The notes under the pieces are model-generated. The model was not told where the DNA came from. It made no database searches and was given only the letters and a program-made list of their open reading frames with translations. A DNA stretch of 64,000 bases from Patescibacteria group bacterium (GTDB lineage: Bacteria; Patescibacteriota; Minisyncoccia; Phycocordibacterales; UBA918): assembly GCA_019745315.1 (NCBI GenBank), contig JAIETH010000001.1, positions 193,295-257,294 of the forward strand, given 5' to 3'. The translations under genes and the position numbers were made by a program. Positions 6,521 to 54,724 of this stretch are shown piece after piece (position 1 is the first letter of the stretch; every line of letters begins with the position of its first letter).

Positions 6521-7432
6521 ATGATTGAACGCTACAAAGACACGGGGGTTACGTGGGTTGACCTTATGAGTCCAACCCCCGAAGAAATACGTGCAGTAAT
6601 GGAGGAATATAACATTCCTCCACAGCTCTTGGGCGACCTTTCGGGTCCTGTCCCTCGTTCAGAGGCAACAGCAAGTGAACATGCTATCAAAATTACCATC
6701 GACTTCCCTGTCGTTAAACGCAAAGACGTTGAGGGCTCTCACGAGATCAAATTCATCATCACCAAAAACACTCTTGTAACCGTACGATACGAAGACATAA
6801 CCGCGCTTCATAAATTTGGAAAAGAGTTTGAAGTGATGACAACTCTTAAAAGAACCACAAAAAGTACTAATGGCGGCTTTTTGTTTATCGCCATGATGAG
6901 CGCACTCTATGACGGACTATCGTCTAAGCTCGACTACATAGAATCGCGCCTCAACACCATTGAACAAGGTATCTTTGAAGAACGCGAGCGAGAGATGGTA
7001 TTTGAAATATCAAAAACAGGCCAAACGCTCATCACTTTTAAGCAAATACTCTTTTCTCATAAAGAGGTACTTGAAGTTGCAGAACCTATGCTCACAAAGA
7101 TGTTTGAAAAAGGCTTCGGAAGCCATATTCAAGAACTGTTGGTGTACTACCAATACCTCTCTCGCCGTGTGAGCACAAGTAATGCAGCGCTCCAGGAACT
7201 TCGCGACACCAATGACTCTCTTTTGTCGACAAAACAAAATGAAACCATGAAAGTATTGACCATCATGGCCTTTATTACCTACCCGCTTACCCTTATTTCC
7301 TCGGTCTTTGGTATGAACACCGAATACACCCCCTTTGTGGCAGGACCCTTTGGTTTCTGGATAATTATCTGTATTATGACAGCCTCCGCCTCAGCACTCT
7401 TTATATACTTCCGCTATAAACGCTGGTTTTAA
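6521..7432 (+). CDS. corA: CorA-family magnesium/cobalt transporter
   Basis: Two C-terminal TM helices with an FGMNTEY motif (the CorA GMN signature). Confidence 0.8.
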   Translation: MIERYKDTGVTWVDLMSPTPEEIRAVMEEYNIPPQLLGDLSGPVPRSEATASEHAIKITIDFPVVKRKDVEGSHEIKFIITKNTLVTVRYEDITALHKFGKEFEVMTTLKRTTKSTNGGFLFIAMMSALYDGLSSKLDYIESRLNTIEQGIFEEREREMVFEISKTGQTLITFKQILFSHKEVLEVAEPMLTKMFEKGFGSHIQELLVYYQYLSRRVSTSNAALQELRDTNDSLLSTKQNETMKVLTIMAFITYPLTLISSVFGMNTEYTPFVAGPFGFWIIICIMTASASALFIYFRYKRWF

Positions 7433-9592: not shown

Positions 9593-9656
9593 ACTCTAAT
9601 TATAATAGGATATATAACTCAAAGAAAAGACATATTGGTGCTTTCAGTTTTTTACA

Positions 9657-9688
9657 AAAAAAAACCTCCACTAGGAGTGAGGTCTGTC
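9657..9688 (-). terminator. rho-independent terminator for small GC-rich gene
   Basis: The reverse strand reads CCTCACTCCTAGTGGAGG followed by T9. Confidence 0.55.
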
Positions 9689-9700
9689 TGCAAAGGAGCT

Positions 9701-9949
9701 CTACCCTTTCAAATATTGCTCGAGGAACGCGCAGCGTATTACACCATCGACACTTCCCAACATCTCCACGCAAGGAGCGGGTGGCGGGACACGATTGTGC
9801 TTCATACACTGAACAATGAAGCTGAGGAATGCCGGATCAGTGTTCACACGATGCACGACAATACCCGCGTGCTCACCCAGCGCATGAAGGATGCGCTGGG
9901 TTGCTCCATGAACCTTACCGGCTTGTACATCTGTCCACTTCATCGTCAA
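9701..9949 (-). CDS. small hypothetical protein on GC-rich island (about 80 aa)
   Basis: AGGAG is 7 nt upstream of ATG 9943 (the TTG at 9949 is an alternative start). A terminator lies downstream. GC is far above its neighbours. No family recognised. Confidence 0.4.
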   Translation of the reverse strand: MTMKWTDVQAGKVHGATQRILHALGEHAGIVVHRVNTDPAFLSFIVQCMKHNRVPPPAPCVEMLGSVDGVIRCAFLEQYLKG

Positions 9950-10118
9950 TCTCCTACCGTTAGCTCTTTCGAGCGACTGGTATTCTGGATATCTTCCAGA
10001 CCGAACTGATCTCTTTTGAAACCAGCTTTTCAGAATCTAAATCTAGAATACAAAAAGCTAGTTTCAAAAAGTAAAGAGTATTATGCTACAATTTTTATAA
10101 ATTGTCTAGTTTCATTTT

Positions 10119-10162
10119 AGACATACAAAAAACTCGGCATATGCCGAGTTTTTTGTATGTCT
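10119..10162. terminator. bidirectional terminator, 22-bp perfect palindrome AGACATACAAAAAACTCGGCAT|ATGCCGAGTTTTTTGTATGTCT
   Basis: Directly downstream of the DEAD-box helicase stop. Its core is almost identical to the 3841-3876 terminator. Confidence 0.75.
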
Positions 10163-10172: not shown

Positions 10173-11861
10173 TTATCCTTCGATCATTGTAAGCGCACTA
10201 CCTTTGTTTGCTCCACGTCCTGTGCGACCGATGCGGTGCACATAATCGTCGTAGGTAGCTGGAACATCAAAGTTAATAACATGAGTTACGTTTGCAATAT
10301 CAAGCCCACGAGCTGCAACGTCTGTTGCCACAAGTACTCGCACCTTCCCTTCCTTGAAGAGACGGAGAGCCTGCTGACGCTTTGAGTTATTTTTGTTTCC
10401 GTGAATAGACTCAGCAGTGATACCACCACGCACAAGCTTTCGCTCAAGCGCATCAACTCCATGCTTCGTGCGTCCGAATACGAGTACGCGAGAGAAATCA
10501 GGCTTCTTGAGAAGATCTACAAGAATATCAAATTTATCTGCACCACGTGGTACGCGGATAACATCCTGATCAATGTTCTTTGAAGTATCACGAGTCTTTA
10601 CTGAGATACGTACTGGTTCATTGAGGAATTCGCTAATAAGCTTTTCAATTTCTGAAGACAGAGTCGCAGAGAAGAAAAGTGTCTGACGATCTTTGGGAAC
10701 ACCAGCAAGAAGTGTGCGCATATCGTGCACAAATCCCATATCAAGCATACGGTCAGCCTCATCAAGTACGACTGTACGGAACTGAGCTGTATTAAGCTTC
10801 TTGCGTACAAGAAGATCCTTAAGACGCCCTGGAGTACCAATCACAAAGTGACGATGCGTTTTGAGCGCTTCAATCTGACGACTGATATTTGCTCCTCCAA
10901 ATGCACAAACTGACTTCACTGCAAGATTCTTCACAAAACCTTGAAGCTCTTCTTCAATCTGAATAGCGAGCTCTCGGGTTGGAACCACGATAAGGACGCT
11001 GTGCTTTGGCTCTTTCAAAACCTTGTCGATAAGAGGAATAAGGAATGCTCCTGTCTTCCCTGTTCCGGTGTTTGCAATACCTACCACATCCACTCCCTGG
11101 AGAATGTGAGGAATACTTCTATCCTGAATTGGAGTTGGTGCTGTATATCCTTTGATGGTAATTGCTTTTTTGAGTGTGTCTCCGATTTTAAAGTCGGTAA
11201 ACATGTGCTCAGGCACGAAGTGCTCAATTTCTTCGGTAATTACCGCTTTGTTGATGTAACGGTTTGGGTCAATTTTCTCACCCATTCCTCTGTTTCCACC
11301 TCGTCCACCACCGCCTCCACGTCCTCCGCGAGAAAATCCTCCGCCAGAACGTCCACCAAAATCACGTCCTCCGCCAAACGAAGGTCGAGATGATGGACGT
11401 GGGTTAGAACCCTCGTACGGACGAGATCCCTGGTATCCTCCACGACTTGGAGTACTAGTGCCTGCTGACGATCCACCACGGTATCCTCCTTCGCGAGGAG
11501 TATATGATGATCGTTCTCCTCCTCTATATGGGGCACGAGCTCCATCTGTTGAAGCACTTGCAGCGCGAGCGTTATATGAGCTTCGTGCTGCATATCCTCC
11601 TCCAGTACTTGGTCTCTGTGACGAACCACCAAAACCTCCAGTGCGAGGCGCACGTGAAGCTCCTCCGGTGTATCCACCAGTACGAGGAGCTCCAGATGAA
11701 CTTCCACCACGACCTCTATCTCCTCCACGAGAAAAACCTCCTCTCGAAGATGAGCTTGCTCCACCCGCGCCACGAGGACGAGATGAGCCAAAAGAGCGCC
11801 CGCCACGTGCAGGACTTCCACTATTTCTTTGTTCCATAATATTCTTTACGAGAAAATCCAA
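10173..11861 (-). CDS. DEAD-box ATP-dependent RNA helicase with about 190-aa N-terminal Arg/Gly/Ser-rich (RGG) low-complexity extension
   Basis: Motif I AxTGTGKT, the DEAD box VLDEADRMLDMGF, SAT and HRIGRTGRG. The N-terminus is GC-rich RGG repeats in frame. An internal Met (MGEKIDP) is a possible alternative start. Confidence 0.85.
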   Translation of the reverse strand: MDFLVKNIMEQRNSGSPARGGRSFGSSRPRGAGGASSSSRGGFSRGGDRGRGGSSSGAPRTGGYTGGASRAPRTGGFGGSSQRPSTGGGYAARSSYNARAASASTDGARAPYRGGERSSYTPREGGYRGGSSAGTSTPSRGGYQGSRPYEGSNPRPSSRPSFGGGRDFGGRSGGGFSRGGRGGGGGRGGNRGMGEKIDPNRYINKAVITEEIEHFVPEHMFTDFKIGDTLKKAITIKGYTAPTPIQDRSIPHILQGVDVVGIANTGTGKTGAFLIPLIDKVLKEPKHSVLIVVPTRELAIQIEEELQGFVKNLAVKSVCAFGGANISRQIEALKTHRHFVIGTPGRLKDLLVRKKLNTAQFRTVVLDEADRMLDMGFVHDMRTLLAGVPKDRQTLFFSATLSSEIEKLISEFLNEPVRISVKTRDTSKNIDQDVIRVPRGADKFDILVDLLKKPDFSRVLVFGRTKHGVDALERKLVRGGITAESIHGNKNNSKRQQALRLFKEGKVRVLVATDVAARGLDIANVTHVINFDVPATYDDYVHRIGRTGRGANKGSALTMIEG

Positions 11862-17317: not shown

Positions 17318-17434
17318 ATATCAAGTATACAGTACATACCCCATATTTCGCGTACACTATATAAAACAAAACTATTGACAAAATCATATAAAAGTAGTAT
17401 TTTCCTCAACAGACCATTTCCCAAAGGAAGATCC

Positions 17435-17896
17435 ATGCTTGCAGCTGCCATCAGCGCGGTGCGTCGCTTTTTCAGAAGCGACGACGCGGAGACCCTTGAG
17501 GCGAGGGAGAAACGCCTTGCAGAGCAACGTGAGCTCGGGGAAAATGCGTATATCCGCATCCGAGAAGCAACAACTCGGAACCAGTTCCATAACCCGCTCA
17601 CGTGCGCCATCGGAATCGGAACTGTAGGTCCTCTCCAGGTCTACACATTCCCGTTCAATGGGAATGGCGACATGTACACCGTCGCTGTGTTCATGTCCGG
17701 TCCCAGTGGCTGGACAGGTGCGATCGAATACAACACCTTCTTCGTTCTTCAGCTGGATATTTCTGTGGGGAGAAATCATGTTTCCCTGCAGACAAAACGA
17801 AATGGCCCCCTCGTAGAAGGGACCATTGACCAGGTCGGCGAGATAATCGCACGCGCCTGCACGCACACTCGCACCTATAATCGCACGGCGAGCTGA
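17435..17896 (+). CDS. hypothetical protein on GC-rich island
   Basis: AAGGAAG RBS 4-5 nt before the ATG. About 58% GC. A hairpin terminator follows. The overlapping minus ORF 17384-17866 is judged to be an artefact. Confidence 0.45.
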   Translation: MLAAAISAVRRFFRSDDAETLEAREKRLAEQRELGENAYIRIREATTRNQFHNPLTCAIGIGTVGPLQVYTFPFNGNGDMYTVAVFMSGPSGWTGAIEYNTFFVLQLDISVGRNHVSLQTKRNGPLVEGTIDQVGEIIARACTHTRTYNRTAS

Positions 17897-17902
17897 ACCA
17901 AT

Positions 17903-17930
17903 CCCAAGAACAGTGTTCTTGGGATTTTTA
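17903..17930. terminator. bidirectional terminator CCCAAGAACA-G-TGTTCTTGGG + T-run
   Basis: Perfect 10-bp stem between convergent genes. Confidence 0.7.
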
Positions 17931-17932
17931 AT

Positions 17933-18511
17933 TTAAAACGAGATAGCGAAAGGAAATGACATTGAAGCTGCATTCTCTTCAAGTCCTGAAGGATTGTCTT
18001 TTTCCAATATCAGAGTTGCATTTCCTGCGTATGCACCAGAGATCATTACGTATGCACGAAATGGTACAAACTCTGTCGTCATCCAGTCTGACTCAGCACG
18101 CGCAGTAACTTTTGCCATCAGTTGCCCCTCAGAATCAAGAATTGTTATAGGAAACACTCCTTCAGAAAACCACTGCCCACGTGCTTTTCCTACAATAGCA
18201 AACTCTGTTCCTGTTACCGCTCCAGGAAATGGTAACTCGACAGTGATCATATCCGCGTCAGCGTTGACATACGTAATATCTGGAGCAATCTCTTTGGCGT
18301 AGGTACGTCCGTCTGGTGTCGTACAACGCGGAGGCTGCATTTCTGATACTGGGTACCCCGCATCAACACAATCCTCATACGATAATACATTTTCTGGAGA
18401 CATATTCTGCTTACGCATTTCCTGCGTATAAAAGAATACAAATACAAGACCTAAAATAATTAGTAATGTTGCTGCAATACCTCCTATTGTATGTGTCATT
18501 TTCATACTCAT
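17933..18511 (-). CDS. Gmad2 Ig-like domain protein, membrane-anchored
   Basis: N-terminal TM. The C-terminal region ARGQWFSEGVFPITILDSEGQLMAKVTARAESDWMTTEFVPF matches the Gmad2/GerMN-associated Ig-like domain. Confidence 0.65.
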   Translation of the reverse strand: MSMKMTHTIGGIAATLLIILGLVFVFFYTQEMRKQNMSPENVLSYEDCVDAGYPVSEMQPPRCTTPDGRTYAKEIAPDITYVNADADMITVELPFPGAVTGTEFAIVGKARGQWFSEGVFPITILDSEGQLMAKVTARAESDWMTTEFVPFRAYVMISGAYAGNATLILEKDNPSGLEENAASMSFPFAISF

Positions 18512-18585
18512 GATTATACTGCATATTTAAAAAGAGTTGTGAGACAGGTATGAATAAACGCTGGACGTATCCAGCGTTTGAAAGA

Positions 18586-18837
18586 TCATGGGCGCGGCAA
18601 AAAGAGAATGACGAGCACAACGACCGCCGCGCAGATCTGCCACCAGTACTTCTTCGCGAACGCGAAGAGTGCGTCGAGAGCTTCCTTGGCGCGATTCTTG
18701 GGAGGATGCCTCCGAAAATCCTGATCGAAGGGCGCGACAATCCAATACGCGCGACCGAAGAGAAAGAAAACAAATCCTGCCACAGCAATCATGGCTGCGA
18801 TCAGGAAGTAGACAGCGATTGTCGGTAAAGATGTCAT
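18586..18837 (-). CDS. small 2-TM membrane protein (84 aa) on GC-rich island
   Basis: AGGAGGG RBS 7 nt upstream of the ATG at 18837. The palindrome AAACGCTGGA-CGTA-TCCAGCGTTT (18549-18572) lies downstream. Confidence 0.5.
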   Translation of the reverse strand: MTSLPTIAVYFLIAAMIAVAGFVFFLFGRAYWIVAPFDQDFRRHPPKNRAKEALDALFAFAKKYWWQICAAVVVLVILFLPRP

Positions 18838-18909
18838 CGTCTGACCCTCCTGTTCTGATAGAACTATACGGAAAAGTGCATTTCGATTCAAGTATGACGG
18901 GATGCGCAC

Positions 18910-20133
18910 TTAGTCTGCTGTATTTTTAGAGATACGATATATTGCTCCTGCTCGATCGTCAGACACATATGCAACACCTCCTGGCTCAACCAAAATATCT
19001 ACTGGTCGTCCAAGCGATTCTTTTGCAGGAGCGCCTGGAGCTAAGAAACCAGTGAGAAAATCAATCGGGCCACCTATCGCGTTTCGAGATTCATCAAGAT
19101 CAAAGCGCACCACCTTGTATCCTGTCGGCTCCTTACGATTCCATGATCCGTGATATGCAACAAGCATATCGAGACGCATATCTTCTCCCCATCCTTCTTC
19201 TGGAATAAATGCAATTCCTAATACAGCGGAATGCGCTTGGAGATCTATGTGTGACGGTGTTTTATCTGCACACGGATCTCGAATGTATGTTTTGTTATCA
19301 AAGTCTGTGTCGTGAATATTTTTTCCATAACAGAGAGGCCAGCCGTAGTCTTTTCCTTCGGTGAGTATGTTTACCTCGTCTGGTGGAATATCATCTCCAA
19401 TCAAATCGCGACCATGATCAGTTCCCCATACTTCGCCGGTAACAGGCTCCGTAGCCATAAACACGGTGTTTCGTAAACCAGACGCAAATGTCGTGACTTC
19501 CTTTGTTGCGAGATCAAGTGCGAGCACAGTTGCGCGTCGTTCATCTTTTTCTTCACACACATTACATGAAGAACCAACAGAAATGAGTAGTCGTTTCCCG
19601 TCAGGATGCATCAAAAGCGTACGAGTAAAATGCCCACTGCCTGTTGGAAATGTCGTGAGGGTCTCTTTATAGGTAGCCGTAAATGCGAGAGGATCATATG
19701 TATATGATTTAAGCTCGCCTGTTTCAGCGACATACAAGAGACACGCCCCTTCTTCACACTGAACCAGAATTCCATGTGGCTGCTGCAACCCCTCAAGTAC
19801 GACAACCGTATGATCCGCAACGCCATTTGCATCAGTATCTGGAAGCGCGACTATTTTTCCATCCTTGGTTAAGGAAACCAACATCATACCCCCATCGTCG
19901 CGAGTCATAACACGCGCGCCTGGAGTCTCACGAGAAAAAATAGTTGTTGTGAAGCCTTCCGGCGCCTCAAACGGAGCAATATCTCCTTGAGGTAACGGAG
20001 GCGCCGGCTTCGCTGTTTTGGTAACAAGATTCACCAGAAATGTCGGTGGTTTTTGTTTTACATACTCATACGCATAGTAACTCCCTACTCCGCATAGGAT
20101 CAGTATAGAGAAAATAATTCCGAGTGTTCGCAT
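18910..20133 (-). CDS. PQQ-dependent glucose/sorbosone dehydrogenase-like beta-propeller (GSDH family)
   Basis: DYGWP motif and multiple blade repeats. N-terminal TM anchor. Confidence 0.65.
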   Translation of the reverse strand: MRTLGIIFSILILCGVGSYYAYEYVKQKPPTFLVNLVTKTAKPAPPLPQGDIAPFEAPEGFTTTIFSRETPGARVMTRDDGGMMLVSLTKDGKIVALPDTDANGVADHTVVVLEGLQQPHGILVQCEEGACLLYVAETGELKSYTYDPLAFTATYKETLTTFPTGSGHFTRTLLMHPDGKRLLISVGSSCNVCEEKDERRATVLALDLATKEVTTFASGLRNTVFMATEPVTGEVWGTDHGRDLIGDDIPPDEVNILTEGKDYGWPLCYGKNIHDTDFDNKTYIRDPCADKTPSHIDLQAHSAVLGIAFIPEEGWGEDMRLDMLVAYHGSWNRKEPTGYKVVRFDLDESRNAIGGPIDFLTGFLAPGAPAKESLGRPVDILVEPGGVAYVSDDRAGAIYRISKNTAD

Positions 20134-22990: not shown

Positions 22991-23011
22991 AAAAAAAGCC
23001 CGTGCTCACGG
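22991..23011 (-). terminator. terminator of GC-rich two-gene cassette
   Basis: GC hairpin (CCGTG-AGC-ACGG) followed by T7 on the minus strand. Confidence 0.45.
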
Positions 23012-23239
23012 CACCGGCTCTTGCTCCTTGACGATCTCTCGCACCTTCTCCATGAAAATGGCGAGACTTCTGCGTTCCTCGGACGTTAAAACCCGATCGA
23101 CGACGACACCCCTCCCGCCGATACGTTCGAACCCCTGCAGTCTGCCGCCTTCGAGAGTCAGTATCATTCCCGCCTTGCCAGGACATGCGATATCCACCAC
23201 CTCCTTCGCGCCATCGCCCTTGCGACAGTGGTATATCAC
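23006..23239 (-). CDS. hypothetical small protein (77 aa), GC-rich cassette gene 2
   Basis: ATGA overlap with the upstream gene. No family recognised. Confidence 0.4.
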   Translation of the reverse strand: MIYHCRKGDGAKEVVDIACPGKAGMILTLEGGRLQGFERIGGRGVVVDRVLTSEERRSLAIFMEKVREIVKEQEPVP

Positions 23240-23478
23240 AGACAGCGTCTGGAGCTGATCTGAACGCTCCGATAGGCTTCCGAGAGCTTTCGTGGAGTAT
23301 TTCGATTGATGACGAAGGCTCCCGACGCACGAAAGACATCATAGAGCTCCGAAATCTGAAGATTGGGCGGGCCGACAATAGCCCTGAAAAGGAACCGACG
23401 GAAGCTCGGGAAAAGGATCGCGAGAACGATCACACTTCCCACGATATAGATCACCCACGCCCAGGTGTTGGAAATCAT
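23236..23478 (-). CDS. hypothetical small N-terminal-TM protein (80 aa), GC-rich cassette gene 1
   Basis: CAGGAGA RBS 8 nt upstream of the ATG at 23478. One TM helix. Confidence 0.4.
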   Translation of the reverse strand: MISNTWAWVIYIVGSVIVLAILFPSFRRFLFRAIVGPPNLQISELYDVFRASGAFVINRNTPRKLSEAYRSVQISSRRCL

Positions 23479-30698: not shown

Positions 30699-30717
30699 AA
30701 CAGCCCTTACGGCTGTT
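30699..30717. terminator. bidirectional terminator ACAGCC-CTTAC-GGCTGT between convergent genes
   Basis: Hairpin with A6 on one side and a T-rich tract on the other. The right arm overlaps the stop of the 52-aa gene. Confidence 0.55.
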
Positions 30718-30874
30718 AGTGATTAAGCTGGCGCATCTCCGCACCAAGCTCTGCGAAGCTCATTTCCTTAAGTCGACGGCTCAAGTCTCGAACCTCATGT
30801 GCGTCTCGACCACGATTATTCCTGTGATCAAGAATGCGCTCAATGAGAGCGTAACGATCTGATTGCTCATACAT
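30716..30874 (-). CDS. small protein (52 aa), not in ORF track
   Basis: AGGAGGA RBS 8 nt before the ATG at 30874. Translation MYEQSDRYALIERILDHRNNRGRDAHEVRDLSRRLKEMSFAELGAEMRQLNH. The terminator hairpin follows immediately. Confidence 0.45.
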   Translation of the reverse strand: MYEQSDRYALIERILDHRNNRGRDAHEVRDLSRRLKEMSFAELGAEMRQLNH

Positions 30875-30971
30875 ATAGAATTCCTCCTGTGCAAAATTCT
30901 ACACGAATCACCTGCCTACATCTATAGTCTATAAAAAGCTCCTGGATTCAGCCAGGAGCATACGCAACCAA

Positions 30972-31454
30972 TCACAATCGATGATATAGAAGAACTGCCT
31001 CGATATTCCCCCTGAGCACCCGACCACCCATCAAGGCGCTAAGAAAAAGAACTGCCTCCGTATCCTTTACTCCGAGCATGAAAGGAAGCAGGATGATATC
31101 GAGTACGATACCGAGCGCGAGAATCAGAGCAACAGCATACATCAGCTTCTTTTCTCGAGAACTCTGTATCACGTCAACCTGCTGATCATACCCCAACCTC
31201 AGGATCTGAAACCCCACATAGATCAGATGCGGTACACACCATGCCATCAAAGCCCAGATAATGAACATCGCCCAACCAATGACCGGGATTTCAATAAACC
31301 GGAGTGCCTCAGTGTGATTGATTACCACAAGAAGCAACCATCCTGCCTGGAAAAAGGCAGCGGCCATATAGAGGATACCCATACGGATCAGGCTCAGCCG
31401 CTTGAAACCCGCAGGGACGAGGAAGGAACGAATGCGTAAAATCGCTGGCAACAT
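30972..31454 (-). CDS. hypothetical membrane protein (GC-rich segment)
   Basis: 160 aa with 4 TM helices. AAGGGG RBS. Confidence 0.45.
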   Translation of the reverse strand: MLPAILRIRSFLVPAGFKRLSLIRMGILYMAAAFFQAGWLLLVVINHTEALRFIEIPVIGWAMFIIWALMAWCVPHLIYVGFQILRLGYDQQVDVIQSSREKKLMYAVALILALGIVLDIILLPFMLGVKDTEAVLFLSALMGGRVLRGNIEAVLLYHRL

Positions 31455-31520
31455 CAGAAAACCCCTTTTATGTCTCTGTTGATGGACTAGAACAATATAA
31501 TAAAATTATCTTTTGTCAAT

Positions 31521-32107: not shown

Positions 32108-33202
32108 ATGAAAACTTCTCTCTATCATCTTATTCCTCTCATAAGTCTATTTTTCTTGTCAATCGCTTTTCTGTATCCAACAACACTCAGCGCAGCAACA
32201 ACGCCTATAAAAATTGATGTTTTTCTTATTGCAGGACAAAGCAATATGATTGGCAATTCAGGCAGCAAGGACAGCGCGCCAACACTTCCTGCGAGCACCA
32301 CCTATCAATACAGAAACGGTAAGATTACAAGTGTTACCAACACACTTACTCCTGGAAAAGGAGCTGCATGGCCTCAGTTTGCGCAAAGCTATATAGGCAA
32401 TAGCACACGCAGAGTAGCTTTTATACAAGAAGCTGTAGGAGGTACTTCTCAGATTGCATCCATAGATAACGGTAATGGAAACTGGAGTACTTCTGGAAAA
32501 TTATTCAATGACTCCGTCCAAGAAACCACTGCAGCCCTTGCAGCATTCAAAAAAGCTGGTTTTGATCCAGCTCTAAAAGGTGTTTTATGGGGTCAAGGAG
32601 AAAATGATGCAGCAATGATTAATGGAAAGCGCATAACAGGCGACGAGTATAAAAAAGAACTCATTGAAATGATCGCCAATTATCGCACAGCATTAGGATC
32701 AACAACTCCATTCTATATATTTCAAACAGGAACAGCAGTAGATAGAAATGATAGTGGGTTTGCAGCTGTGCGCCGTGCGCAAGATGAGATCGCAGCAACA
32801 GATATATATACAGATATCGTGTTTCGAGATGCCATAACGTTTCCTAATCGAAAGATGATGGATAACTACATCCACTATAACCAGGCAGGCTACAACGAGA
32901 TGGGTGACCGAGGCGCTAAAAGTGTGATCTACCTACAAAACAACAAAAAAGCTCCCAAGGCGCCCTTAGCAAGTGTTGTGAGCGGTACATACACAGCAAC
33001 CACCACAGTATCCCTTTCATCAACACTAGGAAGCACTCTCTTATATTCGCTTGATGGACAAAACCCTACGTGTTCACGCGGGACTACCTATGAAAAACCA
33101 ATTGTCTTTTCAGCAAAGGGATCGCATACACTCAAGGCTGTTGCCTGTTCTGTAAAAAAAGATCTATCTCTGTTTTCTATATATCGCTATACAATTAAGT
33201 AA
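32108..33202 (+). CDS. sialate O-acetylesterase-like (SASA/DUF303) carbohydrate esterase with C-terminal Ig/CHB_HEX_C-like domain
   Basis: The GQSNMIG motif within IDVFLIAGQSNMIGNSG. Signal/TM from the Met at 32108; the longest ORF starts at 31994. Confidence 0.65.
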   Translation: MKTSLYHLIPLISLFFLSIAFLYPTTLSAATTPIKIDVFLIAGQSNMIGNSGSKDSAPTLPASTTYQYRNGKITSVTNTLTPGKGAAWPQFAQSYIGNSTRRVAFIQEAVGGTSQIASIDNGNGNWSTSGKLFNDSVQETTAALAAFKKAGFDPALKGVLWGQGENDAAMINGKRITGDEYKKELIEMIANYRTALGSTTPFYIFQTGTAVDRNDSGFAAVRRAQDEIAATDIYTDIVFRDAITFPNRKMMDNYIHYNQAGYNEMGDRGAKSVIYLQNNKKAPKAPLASVVSGTYTATTTVSLSSTLGSTLLYSLDGQNPTCSRGTTYEKPIVFSAKGSHTLKAVACSVKKDLSLFSIYRYTIK

Positions 33203-33266
33203 TCAAAAAGAAACTCTAGAGTGTTTCAGCTTTTTTCTTTGAAAGTTCTCCAAAGATTCCTCTAAC

Positions 33267-33782
33267 TCACATCATTTCTTCATTCTTAATCTTATTTATC
33301 AAAGGCTGCTCAGTAATTTTGACTGAATAGTGATCACCAAGCTTAGTGTCATAGGTCGTATGATGTGGTCGCTCTACTCGTACAAGTGGAACACCTCCCC
33401 TCTCCAGGCGCGTAATTAATTCTTTATACGATAACACTATAGGATATATCTCTATATGATCGAAGCTATTTGTTTGAGAGTTATCTGGTTTCTGATCAGA
33501 AAGCTCCAGGTACTGAAGAACTCCTGCCTCTGTCTCAATTCCCTTTTTAAATTTTATAATTGCTATCCGTCTCCCTGAGATAATAGATTGATATATAAAG
33601 TCGCTTTCAGTTTCAAATATTGCTCTGAGTACCTCAAAGACCTCCCCACTTTCACACCTATAACAGATGTGATCAGCGCGAACATCTTTTGCTAGATTAT
33701 TTTGTTCTATAAAACCATTAAAAGCTGAGACAAGATCATGTGCTTCTCTATAAAAGTCACTGATATTTTTTATATTTGGCAT
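33267..33782 (-). CDS. hypothetical protein (possible VOC/YecM-like fold)
   Basis: 171 aa. Only weak resemblance to any family. Confidence 0.35.
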   Translation of the reverse strand: MPNIKNISDFYREAHDLVSAFNGFIEQNNLAKDVRADHICYRCESGEVFEVLRAIFETESDFIYQSIISGRRIAIIKFKKGIETEAGVLQYLELSDQKPDNSQTNSFDHIEIYPIVLSYKELITRLERGGVPLVRVERPHHTTYDTKLGDHYSVKITEQPLINKIKNEEMM

Positions 33783-33820
33783 AGAAATATTCCTTAGTAC
33801 GATCTGCCCTTATTAAAAAG

Positions 33821-34342
33821 CTAGGACGAAAGATCAGCATAATTGAACAGCACTCCAAATTGTTTACACCACACCATCGCATACCGATACTCTTCTGTAT
33901 TTATATCTGAAGGAACTTCATAGTTTACATTGCCTTCAGTTGCTCGGAGTTCTCCTAGGCTTATATATTCTTTTGCATCGAGATCTTTCGCAAGATACAC
34001 ATACAAATCAGGTCCATTGAGTGTCTTAAAGTTTTCATACCGAACAACATCTCCTGAATCTGTCTTGATGATACGCACAGTACCACTCGCAGGATGACCT
34101 ATCGTGCCCACCACAGGTGCAGCATTTCTTGTGTTTGCCATTGCACCCTCTTCTTGTGCAATAGAGGTCGGCATATTTTCTGCACCACCTTCTGTTATCG
34201 CTACTTCAGAGGATTCAACTACCTTCTTTGATTCTGGCGCAACCTCATCAACTCGAACATGCCTAAACACCGGTGACATGGTGTAGTACAAAATACCAAG
34301 AACTACGATGCCAACTATTCCAATACTTATTTTTTTAATCAT
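33821..34342 (-). CDS. DM13 domain protein, membrane-anchored
   Basis: SGTVRIIKTDSGDVVRYENFKTLNGPDLYVYL...YAMVWCKQFGVLFNYA matches the DM13 consensus. Confidence 0.7.
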   Translation of the reverse strand: MIKKISIGIVGIVVLGILYYTMSPVFRHVRVDEVAPESKKVVESSEVAITEGGAENMPTSIAQEEGAMANTRNAAPVVGTIGHPASGTVRIIKTDSGDVVRYENFKTLNGPDLYVYLAKDLDAKEYISLGELRATEGNVNYEVPSDINTEEYRYAMVWCKQFGVLFNYADLSS

Positions 34343-34433
34343 GTTATGTGAAAGTCCGTCAATTTATTATGGCATTTTTGTTGGCATAGTTAAAACATGA
34401 AATGCGCCAGAATTTTGAGAAACTTTTAACTAT

Positions 34434-34730
34434 ATGTGGTGGTTATTATATATACGCATAACCAACGCTACTATGAAAAACAAAGACATTCCTCTGATTA
34501 TCGTAGGCACCCTCACCGTACTACTCATACCCCTCGCATTCAACTGGGATTGGACAGCAAGTGATTTTGTTATAGCAGGTGTACTCATTTTTGGTACCGC
34601 CCTCCTCCTTAATCAGATACGAAAAAAGATGAGTAGCTACCGGCTGCCTTTCGCAGTACTCGTTATTTTCCTTTTTGTATGGCTCTGGGCAGAACTCGCT
34701 GTCGGCATATTTACAAACTGGGGAAGCTAA
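34434..34730 (+). CDS. small membrane protein
   Basis: 98 aa with 3 TM helices. The probable start is the internal MKNKD. Confidence 0.4.
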   Translation: MWWLLYIRITNATMKNKDIPLIIVGTLTVLLIPLAFNWDWTASDFVIAGVLIFGTALLLNQIRKKMSSYRLPFAVLVIFLFVWLWAELAVGIFTNWGS

Positions 34731-34787
34731 ACACTACTGCGAGCGATTCTAGCAATGTATAAAAAAATCGCCTATTGGCGATACTCG

Positions 34788-35468
34788 TTACGCTTCAACA
34801 CTTCTTCTCTTCAGCGACCCTGGATCGATCAAGTCTTCCCATGGCGCGATATTGTAGCTCGCGCACACGTAGCCGCTTCCGCTTCGTTCAAACACAGTTA
34901 CGGATGCATTTTTCGGACGACCCCAGGAATGCCAGTCTTCAAGACTTGCACCTGTGAGAATGCGTCGCAGACAAAGTCCTGCTATGCCATGCCCAGAAAT
35001 GTACACGGTACTCAGAGAGGCACAAAAGGCCTGCGAAGAAAGAAATCTATTCAACCTCCGCTCCACACCAAGACATGACTCACCTCCCGGCGCTTCGTAG
35101 TGATAATAGCCGACTTCATTGAGGCGATCTTCTTCACCAGGATACATCTGAAGAACTTCTTCTCGAGGATGTCGGTGCCAAACCCCCATATCTCGCTCAT
35201 CAAGGAGAAAGCTCTTCAGAACACGAGAGAAACCAGCCGCAACAGGGATGGCCTTCGTCCGTGAATAGGTCGAGCACCATGCAACCTCGATATCTGGAAA
35301 CTCACGACGTAGATACTCGGCGGTTATATCCCGCTGAAGTACACCGAGATCTGTCAGAGCCGAGTCGCGATTTGCTATCCCGGCCTTGATAGCACTCTGC
35401 GCATCGACATTGTGGATGCACTGCGGATGCCTCGTGAACACAATGCGCCGTGGCATGTTGTGCGACAT
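34788..35468 (-). CDS. histidine phosphatase superfamily protein (GC-rich segment)
   Basis: TRHPQ (an RHG-like motif) near the N-terminus and a later SGHG. GGAAAGGG RBS. Confidence 0.45.
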   Translation of the reverse strand: MSHNMPRRIVFTRHPQCIHNVDAQSAIKAGIANRDSALTDLGVLQRDITAEYLRREFPDIEVAWCSTYSRTKAIPVAAGFSRVLKSFLLDERDMGVWHRHPREEVLQMYPGEEDRLNEVGYYHYEAPGGESCLGVERRLNRFLSSQAFCASLSTVYISGHGIAGLCLRRILTGASLEDWHSWGRPKNASVTVFERSGSGYVCASYNIAPWEDLIDPGSLKRRSVEA

Positions 35469-35575
35469 TTTTATGCCCTTTCCTGCTCCAGGAAGTAGGT
35501 TACAACAAGTTATTCAAAAGCACTAGCGACACGCTTTTGCATAGGAAAAACTACACAGGTCTTTCCTATGTGGTA

Positions 35576-38254
35576 TTAGTAGTCAAACGTCCCGGCGCCA
35601 TCGAGCTCAACCGCAGGAGTCTCACACCCCACAAGCATATTTAAGAATTTATTTGTTGTTTTGTATTTATACCCAGTACCATAGGAAAGATTCCATGGCT
35701 TGAGCATCGTCTCGCTAAATGTTTCTTGAAACTTCTTGAGCGAAACACCAAGAGAAGCATCAAATGTGGTATTGATTTCACCTTTAAAGAATCCGAGCTC
35801 GGTGAGGAGTACCTTAGTCTTCTCTACCTCTGCTGAAGATGTATTTTCAGTCACACTATTATGCTCAACAAATGCCGGACACTGTATGCTCGCACTGCAA
35901 TAGAACGAGTTTATTTTCATAAGCGTTGTGCGGTACACATACCCTGTTGGCTCTGCAAGTCCCCACACCCCAAGCACTTCGCTCGCATGCTTTTTCTGGA
36001 AACGCTTCACAGCTTCAGCATCCTCTTTTGAATACACGCCATCAACAGGAAGGTTCTCTCCCTGCTTTTCATTTAAAAATGTTTCAAGCTTTCGCACATC
36101 CTCTGCATCATTTTCTACATTGAGACCTATATATGAACGTATATGCGGAGCACACACACCTACAGATGTATTCTCTACTTTCTTTTCTTCGCCGTATACA
36201 CAAAGTTCCTGCTTATGGTGAGAAAAATATTTATAGTTTGAAGCATTTGGATCTTTGCACCCAAATGGCTTATGGATCGAGGACCCAGATGATTCCTCAG
36301 TTGATTCTTCTACATCACCAAAAAGTCCAAAGATTGAGAAGCTCGGTGTCGTACATGAAATAGTATTAGCTGTTGTGTCGAGATCACAATCGTTAAGCAT
36401 TACCCACTGACCATTCGTATAGTGGAAAAGCTTAAGCGAGCTCTCATCAAGCCCATCTATCTCACTATCGGTATACTCATATTCAATAGTTACTTCAGCA
36501 TCAAAAGAATCAAGAATTGTTGATCCGTTGATAATCGCTTTAACGTCAAACACGGTCGCACCGACTTCGTTTGAGATTGTTTGCGGACGACCAATTGATG
36601 CAAGGACAGCATCGCTCGCGATTGCCTGCACCTGAATAACAAGCGTTGACGATGTCGCGGTAACTGCAGGAGGAGTGGTGACGGTAAAGGTCTTGCTTTC
36701 TGTCTCAACAAGAGTTGTGCCTCCGGCACTTGCAGTAATAGTGGTTGATGTTGCAACTGACGGCGTCGTACTTCCTGCACATCCCCCAGTGGTAAAGGAG
36801 CTGGCTGTAGAGGTCGCACTATTCCCTACCTGATCTCGGGATACTGCGCGGTAATGGTAGGTTGTACACGAAAGCAGCGGAGAAAGTGTGGTTGTGTGAC
36901 TGGTCACGCGTGGCGATGTATTCGCTTCAGAGGTGGTTGCACCAAGAGCAGAGGTGAGACCATAGAGCACTCGAGTAGATGCTCCTTCGTTTGTAGTCCA
37001 GGTAACACTTGCAGACGTTGACGCAGACGAGTTTGCCGCGAGACTTGTGATGAGAGGCGCTGTTACATCAGCTGTGGTAAATGTCCAGGTAGTTTTTGAA
37101 GATATACCATTGAAATAATTATTGGATCCATCTTTAAATGCCGTACCAGGAATAATGACGTAATACTGAACTCCTTCAAGGAGTGTCACACTTGGATCTA
37201 TGACAATTGAATTACTCCCACCACCTGTAACCTGGGCACTCGCTACATCGATCGTATCAACCGTACTGTCATCAGAATATTTTTTAATGAGAATATTCCC
37301 TGTATCTTTTGTTACCGTTTTACTAAAACTAATCGCGAGATTTGCAGTTGTTGTAGCGTTTGTACTTCCGGTCGAAGGAAAGAGTGTGGTCACTGCAGGT
37401 ACGTCAGCCGTAACAATAGACACATTTCGAGAGACAACAGTAGGAAGTGCTCCATCAGCACCAAACTCGACAACATACCCTTGCTGCGCTGAACACGGAA
37501 AGTCATTCCACTCACCATTTTGTGATGAGTACATGTATCCGCAATCCTCACCACTTCCATAATCATTCGGCTCACCACTTGCCCATCCGTTATATCCACC
37601 CGAAATTGGTAATCCCGTTGTTTCGTTATAAAACGCAGTACCACTCTCCGGGCCAGCAGCCCACTTCCATGTCTTTTCTGTTTCAGAGTCTGTCGCACTC
37701 AACCATCCGTCTCCCGAGAGACGCTGGTAGATAAATGTATTCTCTTCATCAGACGTAACTGTTGCAAGGTATCCAGTCGCACCATATGCACTCTGAGCCT
37801 CAGCAGCACTTTTTGCTGCAGACCAGGTAAAGCTACCTGAGGTAAATTTATACAAGTGACCATTATCTGCAAAAAAGATTTCTGTAGGATTTACCAGCGC
37901 CACTTCAAGTGTATCGGTTCCTGTAGAACCACGAGTATACGTGAGCGTTGAAAGTGCTGAGTTAAGATTCGTAACCGTACCCGAGAGATTCAAGGTATCG
38001 CTATTATTTCCACTTATCGTCACTCCTGAAGTAGCAGAAACTCTCACCGTACCACTAGTCACATAAATCTTAACCGGAGTTGTTGAAGCTCCATTTCCCA
38101 CAATCTGGAATCCCGAAATAGAAGTAGCAACGTTTGGAGTGGTGGTCGCATTATTGCCACTAGTGAGCGTAAGCACATCAGCGTTCGCCACAACAGGAAA
38201 TACAAAAAAGACTGCTGCAACAAGCAGGAGCATTCCGTGAAAATACCGAATCAT
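35576..38254 (-). CDS. large surface protein: signal peptide, C-type lectin domain, Ig/Fn3-like repeats, two C-terminal peptidoglycan-binding-like domains
   Basis: GEPNDYGSGEDCGYMYSSQNGEWNDFPC is the canonical C-type lectin signature. The C-terminus has PG_binding_1-like repeats. Confidence 0.7.
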   Translation of the reverse strand: MIRYFHGMLLLVAAVFFVFPVVANADVLTLTSGNNATTTPNVATSISGFQIVGNGASTTPVKIYVTSGTVRVSATSGVTISGNNSDTLNLSGTVTNLNSALSTLTYTRGSTGTDTLEVALVNPTEIFFADNGHLYKFTSGSFTWSAAKSAAEAQSAYGATGYLATVTSDEENTFIYQRLSGDGWLSATDSETEKTWKWAAGPESGTAFYNETTGLPISGGYNGWASGEPNDYGSGEDCGYMYSSQNGEWNDFPCSAQQGYVVEFGADGALPTVVSRNVSIVTADVPAVTTLFPSTGSTNATTTANLAISFSKTVTKDTGNILIKKYSDDSTVDTIDVASAQVTGGGSNSIVIDPSVTLLEGVQYYVIIPGTAFKDGSNNYFNGISSKTTWTFTTADVTAPLITSLAANSSASTSASVTWTTNEGASTRVLYGLTSALGATTSEANTSPRVTSHTTTLSPLLSCTTYHYRAVSRDQVGNSATSTASSFTTGGCAGSTTPSVATSTTITASAGGTTLVETESKTFTVTTPPAVTATSSTLVIQVQAIASDAVLASIGRPQTISNEVGATVFDVKAIINGSTILDSFDAEVTIEYEYTDSEIDGLDESSLKLFHYTNGQWVMLNDCDLDTTANTISCTTPSFSIFGLFGDVEESTEESSGSSIHKPFGCKDPNASNYKYFSHHKQELCVYGEEKKVENTSVGVCAPHIRSYIGLNVENDAEDVRKLETFLNEKQGENLPVDGVYSKEDAEAVKRFQKKHASEVLGVWGLAEPTGYVYRTTLMKINSFYCSASIQCPAFVEHNSVTENTSSAEVEKTKVLLTELGFFKGEINTTFDASLGVSLKKFQETFSETMLKPWNLSYGTGYKYKTTNKFLNMLVGCETPAVELDGAGTFDY

Positions 38255-38379
38255 ATGACAGTAGTATAAACTAGATGGATCTACTCAGATTGCACCCTCT
38301 GGGGATGCTTAAAATACGATCACACAGAAAAAGCCGCCTAAACAAAGTAAGCTGAGTAGCTTTGTGTTTAGGCGGCGAG

Positions 38380-39135
38380 TTACCCGCGTCGCTTCTTTAT
38401 ATAAGCAAACAAAGGTTGTTGCGGATAGGGGTTTGCAAGCCCCACCGTCATGCCGAAGGAGTGATGATTTTCTCCAGGGTAATGGTATCCGTTCTGGAAA
38501 AGCCACAGAGGCTCTCCATGCTGATGACCAACGCAGACCATGAAGTGATAGCCACCCAGGCATGAGTTCTTGCAGAGACTAAGGATGACACTTGGCTCTA
38601 CCGATTTCGGCACCGTATCCACAACGGCAGAGAACAATCCGCGAGCGTGATATTCCTTCTGTGCCCGGAGAAAATTCTGACGATGCTCCTCACTTGTGCG
38701 ACGCGAGCGAAACATGCGTTCTTTGGCGTAGGCAATGAACACAACATCGCCGACACCGACTCGTGAAGCCATACTGAAGGGACGCATACCATGACCCACC
38801 ACCGCCAGATTCTGCTCATGCTCACATTCCACGAATGTACCCGTGGAAATGTAATGCGCAAAGGCAGAGCAGTTCGTCAGATGAGAGTCGTAGTATCTCT
38901 CCGTATACTCGAGGACGCGAGCGCTGATAAGCTCATCAGCGATAGAGCCTTGATGGTACACACCCCAATTGCGAAACAAAAAATTGAGACCCCTATCAAA
39001 ACCCTTGATCCAATGCAGGCGCACGCCACGATTTGAGCGGATAATCCGCCCATTAGTGTAGATCGTCCTGATCGCGCTCATGTAGCCTTCGTCGGTACGA
39101 TCTATGCAGAGCAAAGGCTTGGCTTCATAGGCCAT
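38380..39135 (-). CDS. hypothetical Cys/His-rich protein (possible thiol hydrolase), GC-rich segment
   Basis: GAGGAG RBS 6-7 nt upstream of the ATG at 39135 (MAYEAKPLL). Conserved-looking Cys and His residues, including TNCSAFAHYI and CVGHQHG. Confidence 0.4.
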   Translation of the reverse strand: MAYEAKPLLCIDRTDEGYMSAIRTIYTNGRIIRSNRGVRLHWIKGFDRGLNFLFRNWGVYHQGSIADELISARVLEYTERYYDSHLTNCSAFAHYISTGTFVECEHEQNLAVVGHGMRPFSMASRVGVGDVVFIAYAKERMFRSRRTSEEHRQNFLRAQKEYHARGLFSAVVDTVPKSVEPSVILSLCKNSCLGGYHFMVCVGHQHGEPLWLFQNGYHYPGENHHSFGMTVGLANPYPQQPLFAYIKKRRG

Positions 39136-39267
39136 GATTTTCTCCTCTTTGCTTCCTCTGGAACTCTTTACCAAGCGAGACTATACAATAAATATTTTAA
39201 AATGGCTAGGTAACCTTCTAAAAAATATTTCTGACTAGATATCTACACCAAGCTGGTAACTTACACA

Positions 39268-40083
39268 CTATCTAAACGTCACTGTTCCGCTGTCGTACTT
39301 AAGTTCCAAGATGAGCTCACCACGGCTGGTGAAGAAAAAGGACGCGGTATTTTGGAGTAGCGCTATAAACTCTGATTCTTGCGAACCTTCACAGTACATT
39401 TTCGTAGAAACAATATTATCAAAAGTAATAAGGTTTTGATTTACCGAATAGCTTCCTCCCACGCTATTGCAATCAGTAGACGCGCTGAAGGTTTTGTCTG
39501 CATTGAATGTGAGCGCAAAAACATCTGGCTTTGTTGGGATAATTTCCCGCCCATCGTTATAAAGCGCTTTCTGCCACTTCCACTTTGTCATACCAAGTGT
39601 CATCCGATCTGGATCAGCTTCACCTTCAAAGCCGGTATCAAGAGCGAGCTTGCTCCCTTGTATGATTTCTTGATTACTATCAAGAACATAGAGCTTAGTT
39701 GGCTCAGATGTGAGACGCACGTACCGAATCTGCTTACCTTCTGGCTTCTGCCAATTGAGTACGTAGACGGTAGCGTCCACGTCATCTTTAAACCCTCGCT
39801 CAGTATTAAGCTCTCCAGTACGCACAAGACCATTCGTTTGGAGTCGATAGGTTGTGTAGTCTCTGTGTTCAAATACCACCTCCACCCTATCAACACGCGC
39901 AGCATATCGCTCAGTTGTCGGGCCCTCTTCCCATACCACTTCTTTTGCAGAAGTATCTACTGCCCCTGAGTCAGGAATCTCTGGAGCTGGCGCAGTAGCA
40001 CTCTCTTTGTTAAGCAAAAGAAATGCACACAGCCCTATGAGAGCCGCGACGAGAACAATAAGCATATATACTGCTTTTTTCAT
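39268..40083 (-). CDS. META (HslJ-like) domain lipoprotein/anchored protein
   Basis: The C-terminal region FNADKTFSASTDCNSVGGSYSVNQNLITFDNIVSTKMYCEG...FIALLQ matches the META domain. Confidence 0.65.
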   Translation of the reverse strand: MKKAVYMLIVLVAALIGLCAFLLLNKESATAPAPEIPDSGAVDTSAKEVVWEEGPTTERYAARVDRVEVVFEHRDYTTYRLQTNGLVRTGELNTERGFKDDVDATVYVLNWQKPEGKQIRYVRLTSEPTKLYVLDSNQEIIQGSKLALDTGFEGEADPDRMTLGMTKWKWQKALYNDGREIIPTKPDVFALTFNADKTFSASTDCNSVGGSYSVNQNLITFDNIVSTKMYCEGSQESEFIALLQNTASFFFTSRGELILELKYDSGTVTFR

Positions 40084-40090
40084 ATAGTAA

Positions 40091-40396
40091 TTATGTATCT
40101 TTTGGCAAACCCCACTGCCACTTTGGTTTTTCTCCTTTCTTGTAGGCTATAAAAATAAAAAGAATGGTAAGTACAATAAAAGGTAACCCCGACACTAAAA
40201 AATTACTTCCTGAATCAGGATTCCCTGGAATGGCTTCTTCTCTCACAAGCGCGAGAAGAGAGACGAGCGCGATGTACAGCGCTGTAGTGAACCATCCCTG
40301 CCAAGTTGCAGGTACCCATCCCCACCCCCATATCTTACGCTTAAACCAGTAGTGTTCGGGATTGTCTTGTATGTAATCAAGATATTTTTTAAACAT
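40091..40396 (-). CDS. small membrane protein
   Basis: 101 aa with 2 TM helices. Confidence 0.45.
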   Translation of the reverse strand: MFKKYLDYIQDNPEHYWFKRKIWGWGWVPATWQGWFTTALYIALVSLLALVREEAIPGNPDSGSNFLVSGLPFIVLTILFIFIAYKKGEKPKWQWGLPKDT

Positions 40397-40398
40397 GC

Positions 40399-54715: not shown

Positions 54716-54724
54716 CCGCCTCCA

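Follow-up and report, generated by a model that had tools for sequence, protein, structure and literature searches.

Shine-Dalgarno-led, GC3-rich gene cassettes between leaderless-type core genes in a Patescibacteria genome

Between the genes of lambdoid phages there are reportedly autonomous units, known as morons from the work of Juhala and Hendrix, each of which consists of a promoter, an open reading frame (ORF) and a terminator and deviates from its surroundings in base composition. Here, we describe short GC-rich cassettes of similar layout from a stretch of 64,000 nucleotides of a Patescibacteria group bacterium (contig JAIETH010000001.1, positions 193,295 to 257,294; hereafter called the window), where they carry Shine-Dalgarno (SD) sites and lie among core genes whose starts are of the leaderless type.

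The closest described type of gene expression is group C of GeneMarkS-2, which stands for leaderless transcription and matches the architecture of the core genes in our window (PMC6028130). In Mycobacterium tuberculosis, the remaining ~60% of the operons carry a separate motif 6–8 nt before the start (PMC6028130), presumably the SD ribosome-binding site. Atypical genes were reported to be often lower in GC than typical ones, and the text of the same survey names Actinobacteria, Deinococcus-Thermus, Proteobacteria, Firmicutes and the FCB group, with Patescibacteria not among them (PMC6028130).

Two kinds of gene start in one window

An SD core of at least 5 nt, the criterion applied in the SD tests, was found at only 2 of 57 core starts, compared to a background of 7.4%, which bears out an earlier sequence-only reading of the window according to which the core genes lack recognisable SD sites. 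We ascribe this lack to a leaderless architecture, because a −10 box stands directly before the ATG: the motif TANNNT occurs 5–9 nt upstream of 24 of the 57 core starts vs. 7.6% of all ATGs in the window, and its strict form TAYAMT precedes 17 of the 57 vs. 1.1% of all ATGs. The commonest spacing is 6–7 nt, and most of the promoters belong to the extended −10 class (TGn), following the pattern TGnTAYACT. A −10 box is usually located 6–7 nt before the transcription start, and judging from this spacing, transcription of the core genes probably begins at the start codon itself. The pattern is exemplified by the following starts.

48305–48321, minus strand: leaderless core promoter read from the sequence, ttgcTATACT, 7 nt before the ATG at 48305
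Upstream sequences of core starts: ttgcTATACTgcatgcgATG (48305), ttgcTATACTatttttATG (43245), ctgcTACACTataggtATG (50067) and ttgcTATACTtatacgtATG (40776)
29643, 38254, 24165, 17317, 6521, 53622, 40892, 28653, 46775 and others: further core starts with the same pattern

The start region (18499–18520) of the minus-strand gene for a Gmad2 protein has a TATAAT box 1 nt from the first ATG (18511) and 7 nt from the second (18505), and the true leaderless start is probably the latter. A 16S rRNA gene is not present in the window, and none of the loci fetched from Candidate Phyla Radiation (CPR) bacteria contained a CPR 16S rRNA 3' end.

The cassettes differ from the core genes in their start signals. 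All nine cassette starts carry the SD core vs. the 2 of 57 core starts (Fisher p = 1.5e-9), although the starts of B, C, I and J2 were partly chosen by their SD sites, which inflates the test. The starts of A, D, E and G match independent gene calls, and independent callers start F either at the same ATG or four codons downstream. The SD sites were confirmed at the places where they had been read before, e.g., AAGGAAG at 17424–17430 and AGGAGGG on the minus strand at 18845–18851. Promoters with −35 and −10 boxes precede A, B, E and G, and hairpin/T-run terminators were recognised by eye behind all nine cassettes, with a strict scan returning six of the nine vs. 10 of 56 core genes; promoter and terminator calls are consensus matches to the sequence. 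The self-contained character of the cassettes proposed by the sequence-only reading was recovered in this way, as a layout of promoter, SD leader, short ORF or ORFs and private intrinsic terminator, and the small membrane proteins expected from several cassettes are represented by B, C and E, which contain one to four hydrophobic or transmembrane (TM) segments each. In the following list, z denotes the excess in the GC content of third codon positions (GC3) over an expectation conditioned on the amino acid (aa) sequence of each protein, using the codon usage of 39 core genes as reference.

17375–17403, plus strand: promoter of cassette A, TTGACA-17 nt-TATTTT, the best promoter-like match in 9–28 kb (10/12 positions)
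17424–17430, plus strand: SD site of cassette A, AAGGAAG, 4 nt before the ATG (duplex free energy, dG, −5.6)
17435–17896, plus strand: gene A, 153 aa, gene K2X96_01200 of the Prokaryotic Genome Annotation Pipeline (GC3 0.62, z = 7.0)
17900–17926, plus strand: intrinsic terminator of cassette A as read from the sequence, a 12-bp stem followed by TTTTTAATTT
18863–18891, minus strand: promoter of cassette B, TTGAAT-17 nt-TATAGT (consensus match)
18845–18851, minus strand: SD site of cassette B, AGGAGGG (dG −10.8)
18586–18837, minus strand: gene B, 83 aa, membrane protein with two hydrophobic segments (GC3 0.65, z = 5.3)
18557–18580, minus strand: terminator hairpin of cassette B as read from the sequence, AAACGCTGGA-TACG-TCCAGCGTTT followed by ATT
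23236–23478, minus strand: gene C of cassette C, 80 aa, N-terminal TM segment, SD site CAGGAGA (z = 5.2)
23006–23239, minus strand: gene C2 of cassette C, 77 aa (z = 5.9), terminator hairpin at ~22998–23018 followed by T7
30716–30874, minus strand: gene D, 52 aa, K2X96_01270, SD site AGGAGGA (z = 0.6), terminator at 30699–30717
30938–31519, minus strand: cassette E, promoter TTGACA-16 nt-TATTGT at 31492–31519, SD site AAAAGGGG, terminator at 30938–30959
30972–31454, minus strand: gene E, 160 aa, three to four TM segments, K2X96_01275 (z = 4.4)
34767–35482, minus strand: cassette F, SD site GGAAAGGG, terminator at 34767–34782
34788–35468, minus strand: gene F, histidine phosphatase of 226 aa (Pfam His_Phos_1, E = 1e-18; z = 4.0)
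38333–39208, minus strand: cassette G, promoter TAGCCA-17 nt-TATAGT at 39180–39208, SD site AGAGGAG, long-loop terminator hairpin at ~38333–38377
38380–39135, minus strand: gene G, 251 aa (z = 6.6)
54578–54750, plus strand: cassette I, very strong SD site AAGGGAGGTG, putative 39-aa ORF at 54596–54715 (z = 3.2), hairpin/T-run at ~54726–54750
9656–9943, minus strand: cassette J2, SD site TAGGAGA, putative 80-aa ORF at 9701–9943 (z = 2.9), hairpin followed by T9

The window has a GC content of 44.2%, with a standard deviation of 5.1% among 200-bp windows. The segments singled out by the sequence-only reading contain 49–58% GC (52.3% for 17380–17930 and 51.2% for 18540–18910) vs. 38–48% in their 500-bp flanks; the contrast of about 8–12 points is real, but smaller than the original estimate of 55–60% vs. 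35–45%. Two of the ten listed segments are ordinary for their length, since 6% of same-length windows are as GC-rich as 9640–10010 and 22% as GC-rich as 30700–30880, and comparable GC contents are also reached by many stretches within core genes. With amino acid content controlled for, the observed GC3 of A, B, C, C2, E, F, G, I and J2 amounts to 0.49–0.68 vs. an expected 0.36–0.44.

The same association was found in 50 other Patescibacteria loci, comprising 870 ORFs with a minimum length of 90 aa, whose starts were set at the first ATG. Typical genes in these loci carry an SD site at 8% of their starts, equalling the 6–8% at shifted or internal control positions, and a −10-like box 5–9 nt upstream at 37% of the starts vs. 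13% at shifted positions. Genes with a GC3 excess, defined as a GC3 of more than 0.12 above the median of their own locus, carry an SD site at 40% of their starts, compared to 7% at shifted positions, while a −10-like box precedes 5% of their starts. The SD rate climbs with the GC3 excess from 5–9% via 19% to 43% and 30% in the two top bins, while the leaderless signal falls from ~40% to 0–7%. The SD-led, GC3-high genes of these loci again code for small accessory proteins, which are often membrane proteins. The near-exclusive pairing of leaderless typical genes with SD-led GC3-excess genes appears to be new for Patescibacteria; we found no report of it, nor of leaderless expression in this group, in the searchable literature, which is only weak evidence.

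Genes, families and neighbourhoods of the cassettes

The source genome is small, Paceibacteria-like and metagenome-assembled (locus tags K2X96_012xx on a contig of 315,805 bp), and its nearest species-level genomes are Paceibacterota-, Lloydbacteria- and Kaiserbacteria-like, with 57–67% protein identity as judged by a single marker, a 407-aa dehydrogenase whose gene is itself spread widely across phyla and whose relatives at this identity show no synteny with the window. Closer relatives with 92–97% nucleotide identity to the window were reached via exact-sequence look-ups and originate from ENA (L162, L163, L168 and L169) or JGI (L164/L166, L165 and L167). In addition, we used a 100% identical contig from Logan which was produced by a different assembler (L001), and another NCBI assembly (L170). 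The analysis shows the composition, signals, coding status, positional conservation and family distribution of the cassettes, from which transcription starts on the ATG, lateral origin and protein functions are inferred.

Gene A codes for a soluble α/β protein of a rare, uncharacterised family, which is represented by nine homologues among 1.84 billion representative proteins; its AlphaFold2 model reaches a predicted local distance difference test score (pLDDT) of 80.5 and is confident once an alignment is supplied. The substitutions of gene A relative to L162 are distributed as 1/5/11 over the three codon positions and, like a ratio of non-synonymous to synonymous divergence of ~0.11 relative to L170, point to coding. 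The promoter of the cassette is kept in L162 and L170, and its SD site is kept in L162 despite many substitutions in the surrounding leader. At the place of the terminator, L170 contains a hairpin of another sequence. One relative carries A split into ORFs of 103 and 74 aa. The coding sequence contains several perfect hairpins of 9–12 bp, one of which (17801–17827) reads as a minus-strand terminator downstream of the convergent Gmad2 gene.

Cassette B is read on the minus strand, as indicated by an ORF which keeps its full length of 83 aa in four relatives and shows exchanges of hydrophobic residues for other hydrophobic ones in the first TM segment, and by substitutions which fall on the codon positions as 11/10/19 in the minus frame compared to 19/10/11 in the plus frame. 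The overlapping plus-strand ORF at 18550–18828 (K2X96_01210, 92 aa) has a length of only 72 aa in L164 and was not accepted as a gene, because the minus-strand ORF has the SD site, promoter and terminator, the kept length and the better substitution pattern; the public annotation K2X96_01210 is thus probably on the wrong strand. In L164 and L165, the region 18757–18909 is hyper-divergent, with 16% difference in the gene and 31% upstream of it vs. 2–6% in the flanks. This region covers the N-terminal TM segment and the promoter region, whereas the SD site, the ATG and the −10 box are still conserved. The pattern suggests either allele replacement or diversifying change.

Genes C and C2 are coupled via a GTGA overlap within 23006–23478. 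The substitutions by codon position are 1/1/4 for D, 2/1/4 for E, 6/8/21 for F and 6/3/12 for G. Gene D is SD-led, yet its GC3 is as expected (z = 0.6, not significant). Gene G is a member of a family comprising 19 clusters of ~250-aa proteins without a Pfam domain, which have in common Cys89 (TNCSAF) and His197 (YHFMVC), both invariant, and a conserved KKRR at the C-terminus. The Cys/His motif hints at a papain- or NlpC/P60-like hydrolase as a candidate function, and the family profile found no match in the PDB or in viral contigs. Gene G is frameshifted in L166, and its homologues in three other genomes (L005, L173 and L175) are SD-led and located in different neighbourhoods, the one in L175 showing no GC3 excess.

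Cassette I immediately precedes topA, which is read from the same strand, and could represent either a small protein or a leader/attenuator element; exact-sequence look-ups found no recorded gene for its ORF or for that of J2. At the latter locus, the plus-strand ORF J (9635–10009) was rejected, because the minus-strand ORF has an SD site and a terminator. Another rejected candidate is ORF H (38309–38563, 84 aa), which overlaps the 3' end of G and has a typical GC3.

The region around F and G (32348–41877) is an indel hot-spot in comparison with L166, one of the relatives of 92–97% identity. L166 lacks an 892-aa lectin/peptidoglycan-binding gene (35576–38254), so that G and F are adjacent there, and contains genes for a peptide deformylase, Polyketide_cyc2 and SOUL proteins and a 965-aa protein at that place and at neighbouring junctions. 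The gene with the highest GC3 excess of the window (z = 11) lies outside the cassettes and codes for a TrlF-family AAA-like ATPase of 938 aa on the minus strand (43330–46146; NCBIfam, E = 4e-152), which has similarity to the anti-phage protein Ppl, its family being close to anti-phage ATPases. The start of this gene is of the leaderless type. Its neighbours on both sides are small genes of the P-loop kinase-like kind, including an AAA_33/Zeta-toxin-like gene at 41979–42491, and this neighbourhood may be a defence islet.

Origin of the cassettes

We lean, with some reserve, towards a leaderless-type genome that carries unrelated, self-sufficient accessory transcription units acquired laterally in a moron-like manner. 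The native genes would be transcribed from an extended −10 box (TGnTAYACT) 6–8 nt before the ATG, starting at or next to the start codon, and their mRNAs would lack a 5' leader and need no SD site. Between them, there would be at least eight short, mutually unrelated and autonomous transcription units, each comprising its own promoter (often of the −35/−10 type), an SD leader of ~20–30 nt, one or two short ORFs and an intrinsic terminator. Their products would be poorly conserved accessory proteins, namely the membrane proteins B, C and E, the phosphatase F, the Cys/His protein G and the α/β protein A. Having been acquired as complete promoter-SD-ORF-terminator sets in analogy to phage morons, the units would be expressible wherever they land without taking on the composition or the leaderless start signals of the host, and would by now be fixed in the species-level lineage.

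The suggestion of the sequence-only reading that the cassettes came from a different genetic background is partly supported by their atypical composition and the varied contexts of their families. Members of the A and G families occupy unrelated contexts in other genomes, which fits lateral acquisition. In genomes with GC contents of 44%, 53% and 62%, A-family members are SD-led and have terminators of their own. In the 62% GC genome, a CPR contig (L171, 975–3305), the A-like gene P0020 and a 546-aa coiled-coil ORF are located between rplE and rpsN, which are normally contiguous in the spc operon, and terminator-like hairpins bound both of them. The A-like gene has its own SD site (GGAGA), while the adjoining ribosomal-protein genes show none, and we therefore conclude that SD use tracks the gene family and not the donor genome. 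Another member (L172) has the SD site GGGAGA and a GC3 of 0.75 vs. 0.54 in its neighbour.

A number of observations weigh against lateral acquisition. All cassettes checked are present at the same loci in the relatives of 92–97% nucleotide identity; specifically, A, B, C2, D, E, F and G have the same junctions in L001 and L162–L169, and presence/absence polymorphism was not seen among the close relatives. No donor was identified and no empty sites were found; an empty junction between the TspO and Gmad2 genes flanking A was sought in distant relatives, where the gene order differs and is uninformative on A. The A and G families were found only on uncultured, mostly CPR-like contigs and not in well-sampled GC-rich bacteria. 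PHROGs returned no match for any ORFan unit, with F alone matching one family of unknown function, and the phage genomes contained no match to the cassette units. The ORFs annotated in the window do not include an integrase, the tRNA genes are distant, and there are no flanking repeats. Moreover, gene A keeps a GC3 of 0.63 in both its own genome and L170 despite saturated synonymous sites (proportion of synonymous differences, pS, 0.74), and its composition therefore looks maintained rather than decaying. GC3-deficient outliers in the 50 loci show no SD enrichment (7%) and behave like typical genes, so that the link is directional and does not simply equate atypical genes with SD use. Finally, three genes of the window with GC3 excess look leaderless, namely those for the TrlF ATPase and a DUF2200 protein and the gene at 6521–7432.

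The most serious alternative, which we regard as possible but rather unlikely, is that the cassettes form a native, lineage-wide class of leadered, SD-dependent genes whose high GC3 is kept up by an active process, e.g., GC-biased gene conversion at loci with frequent recombination or expression-linked selection. It is supported by the case of A in L170, which occupies the same locus between TspO and Gmad2 flanks of 85–95% protein identity (in the aligned parts) and a synonymous divergence (dS) of 0.5–0.7, whereas A itself is only 54% identical, with saturated synonymous sites and a ratio of non-synonymous to synonymous divergence (dN/dS) of ~0.11. Together with the difference of 16–31% vs. 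2–6% at B, this is compatible with frequent allele import, and the local hyper-divergence of A and B fits either repeated import of alleles or a locally maintained GC bias. A native class is also favoured by the SD status following the gene family across hosts of 44–62% GC, including L171 with its ribosomal-protein neighbours lacking SD sites, by the association of SD sites with GC3 excess and not with GC3 deficit, and by the restriction of the families to CPR-like contigs. However, the A-like gene of L171 has a GC3 of 0.83, slightly under the 0.90 of its neighbours, and is plainly inserted into the spc operon, and the G homologue in L175 lacks a GC3 excess. The unrelated contexts of family members and the pseudogenised copies in close relatives likewise speak against a native class, as does a gene for an outer-membrane β-barrel protein (OMP_b-brl) on a contig labelled as Paceibacterota (L003, 13250–13975), which is SD-led and GC3-high. 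CPR bacteria such as Paceibacterota are not known to have an outer membrane, and this gene therefore points to a foreign donor; it represents either foreign DNA or a binning error.

A bolder variant, which we consider doubtful, would be a two-tier expression system in Paceibacteria-like Patescibacteria, in which SD-dependent initiation is confined to GC3-rich autonomous accessory genes, many of them for small membrane proteins, with their GC3 being maintained and nearly all native genes being leaderless. If true, the mode of initiation would mark, and could co-regulate, accessory and interaction genes of these symbionts, and the accessory compartment could be recognised across thousands of CPR genomes by a marker derived from sequence alone.

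Non-coding RNAs in AT-rich genomes classically stand out by their GC-rich DNA, and the segments might therefore represent structured RNAs, with their ORFs being spurious. This is suggested by the long ORFs on both strands of A and B, by the transcript of A, which folds unusually well (z = −4.9 for 17435–17930 including the terminator and −3.4 for the coding sequence alone, based on mononucleotide shuffles with core-gene controls), and by I and J2, which show no independent sign of coding. We nevertheless judge it very improbable, since the fold z-scores of all other cassettes are near 0 and Rfam had no match in any cassette, its matches in the window being two tRNAs elsewhere. Further counter-evidence comes from the bias of substitutions towards third positions in A, D, E, F, G and the minus frame of B relative to the relatives, the protein families with invariant residues, the confident model of A, the Pfam match of F and the TM segments kept by conservative replacements.

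There is similarly little chance that the GC-richness merely reflects Ala-, Arg- and Gly-rich proteins encoded with genome-typical codon usage. The check by GC and GC3 profiles proposed with the sequence-only reading was run, and amino acid composition accounts for two of the ten items, namely gene D and a supposed cassette within a helicase gene, and fails for the rest, with A, B, C, C2, E, F, G, I and J2 at z = 2.9–7.0.

11270–11837, minus strand: N-terminal Arg/Gly-rich (RGG-like) extension of ~190–230 aa of a DEAD-box RNA helicase (Pfam DEAD, Helicase_C)

This extension has a GC content of 0.83 at second codon positions (GC2) and a GC3 of 0.20, i.e., AT-rich third positions typical of the genome, and owes its GC content to Arg and Gly codons only; on these values, it was ruled out as a cassette. 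A perfect 44-bp palindrome consisting of an A-tract, a hairpin and a T-tract (10119–10162) is located just past the 3' end of the helicase gene and looks like a bidirectional terminator.

Even less credible is the view of the cassettes as copies from a single family of mobile modules, e.g., integron cassettes, elements resembling miniature inverted-repeat transposable elements or paralogous small membrane proteins. The similar size and layout of the units and the several small hydrophobic proteins would agree with the idea of a family of modules, as put forward in the sequence-only reading, but comparing the cassettes with each other by all-against-all blastn and blastp revealed neither DNA nor protein similarity, and the segments have no second copy in the window and no shared terminal repeats. 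The units are moreover dispersed over 45 kb, each with its own promoter, and the annotated ORFs of the window lack an integrase. Finally, an assembly or binning artefact involving chimeric reads from a GC-richer organism, conceivable for a metagenome-assembled genome, can practically be dismissed, since both junctions recur in L001, L162–L169 and L170, with the cassette junctions found in at least seven contigs from several other samples and assemblers.

Consequences and comparison with known systems

Patescibacteria represent a large and almost uncultured share of bacterial diversity, whose gene expression is barely described. If the native genes are mostly leaderless and an SD leader marks accessory genes of distinct composition, gene callers that rely on SD sites or on a single codon model would mis-start genes or place them on the wrong strand, as exemplified by gene B, and an SD site combined with a GC3 excess would serve as a cheap flag for accessory or acquired CPR genes. 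The small membrane proteins of the units would then become candidates for host interaction or defence, and genetic tools for CPR bacteria would need leaderless promoter designs. The known principles stand, as both leaderless genomes and atypical genes are already established kinds.

Among the described systems, the integron cassettes are promoterless, have recombination sites or sequence similarity in common and form an array beside an integrase, none of which was observed for the units of the window. Loci of type I toxin-antitoxin systems and other small hydrophobic proteins resemble B (83 aa), C (80 aa) and E (160 aa), which are likewise monocistronic membrane-protein units with a strong SD site and a terminator. 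However, no antisense RNA, repeats or family match were found for the units of the window, and A, F and G are soluble, leaving a resemblance only. Horizontally transferred ORFan genes and islets share with our units the deviant GC3, the few and patchy homologues, the pseudogenised copies and the adjoining indel hot-spot, whereas the units differ from genomic islets by being single-gene and without an integrase, tRNA or repeats.

The leaderless group C genomes are similar in having a Pribnow box 6–8 nt from many starts and a mix of leaderless and SD-led genes, and in containing atypical genes which need separate models of composition (PMC6028130). In contrast to M. tuberculosis, SD sites in the compositionally typical genes of our window and of the 50 other Patescibacteria loci are at background level and are concentrated in the GC3-excess genes. 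Moreover, the atypical genes of that study are often of lower GC, whereas the units of the window deviate upward, with a GC3 excess persisting across saturated synonymous divergence. Compared to phage morons, the units are chromosomal, standing among housekeeping and envelope genes instead of in a prophage, and have no detectable phage link. They are like morons in that each combines a promoter and a terminator of its own with one or two small ORFs, often for membrane proteins, and in lying with a composition unlike that of their flanks between otherwise contiguous genes, up to the A-family member that splits a ribosomal-protein operon.

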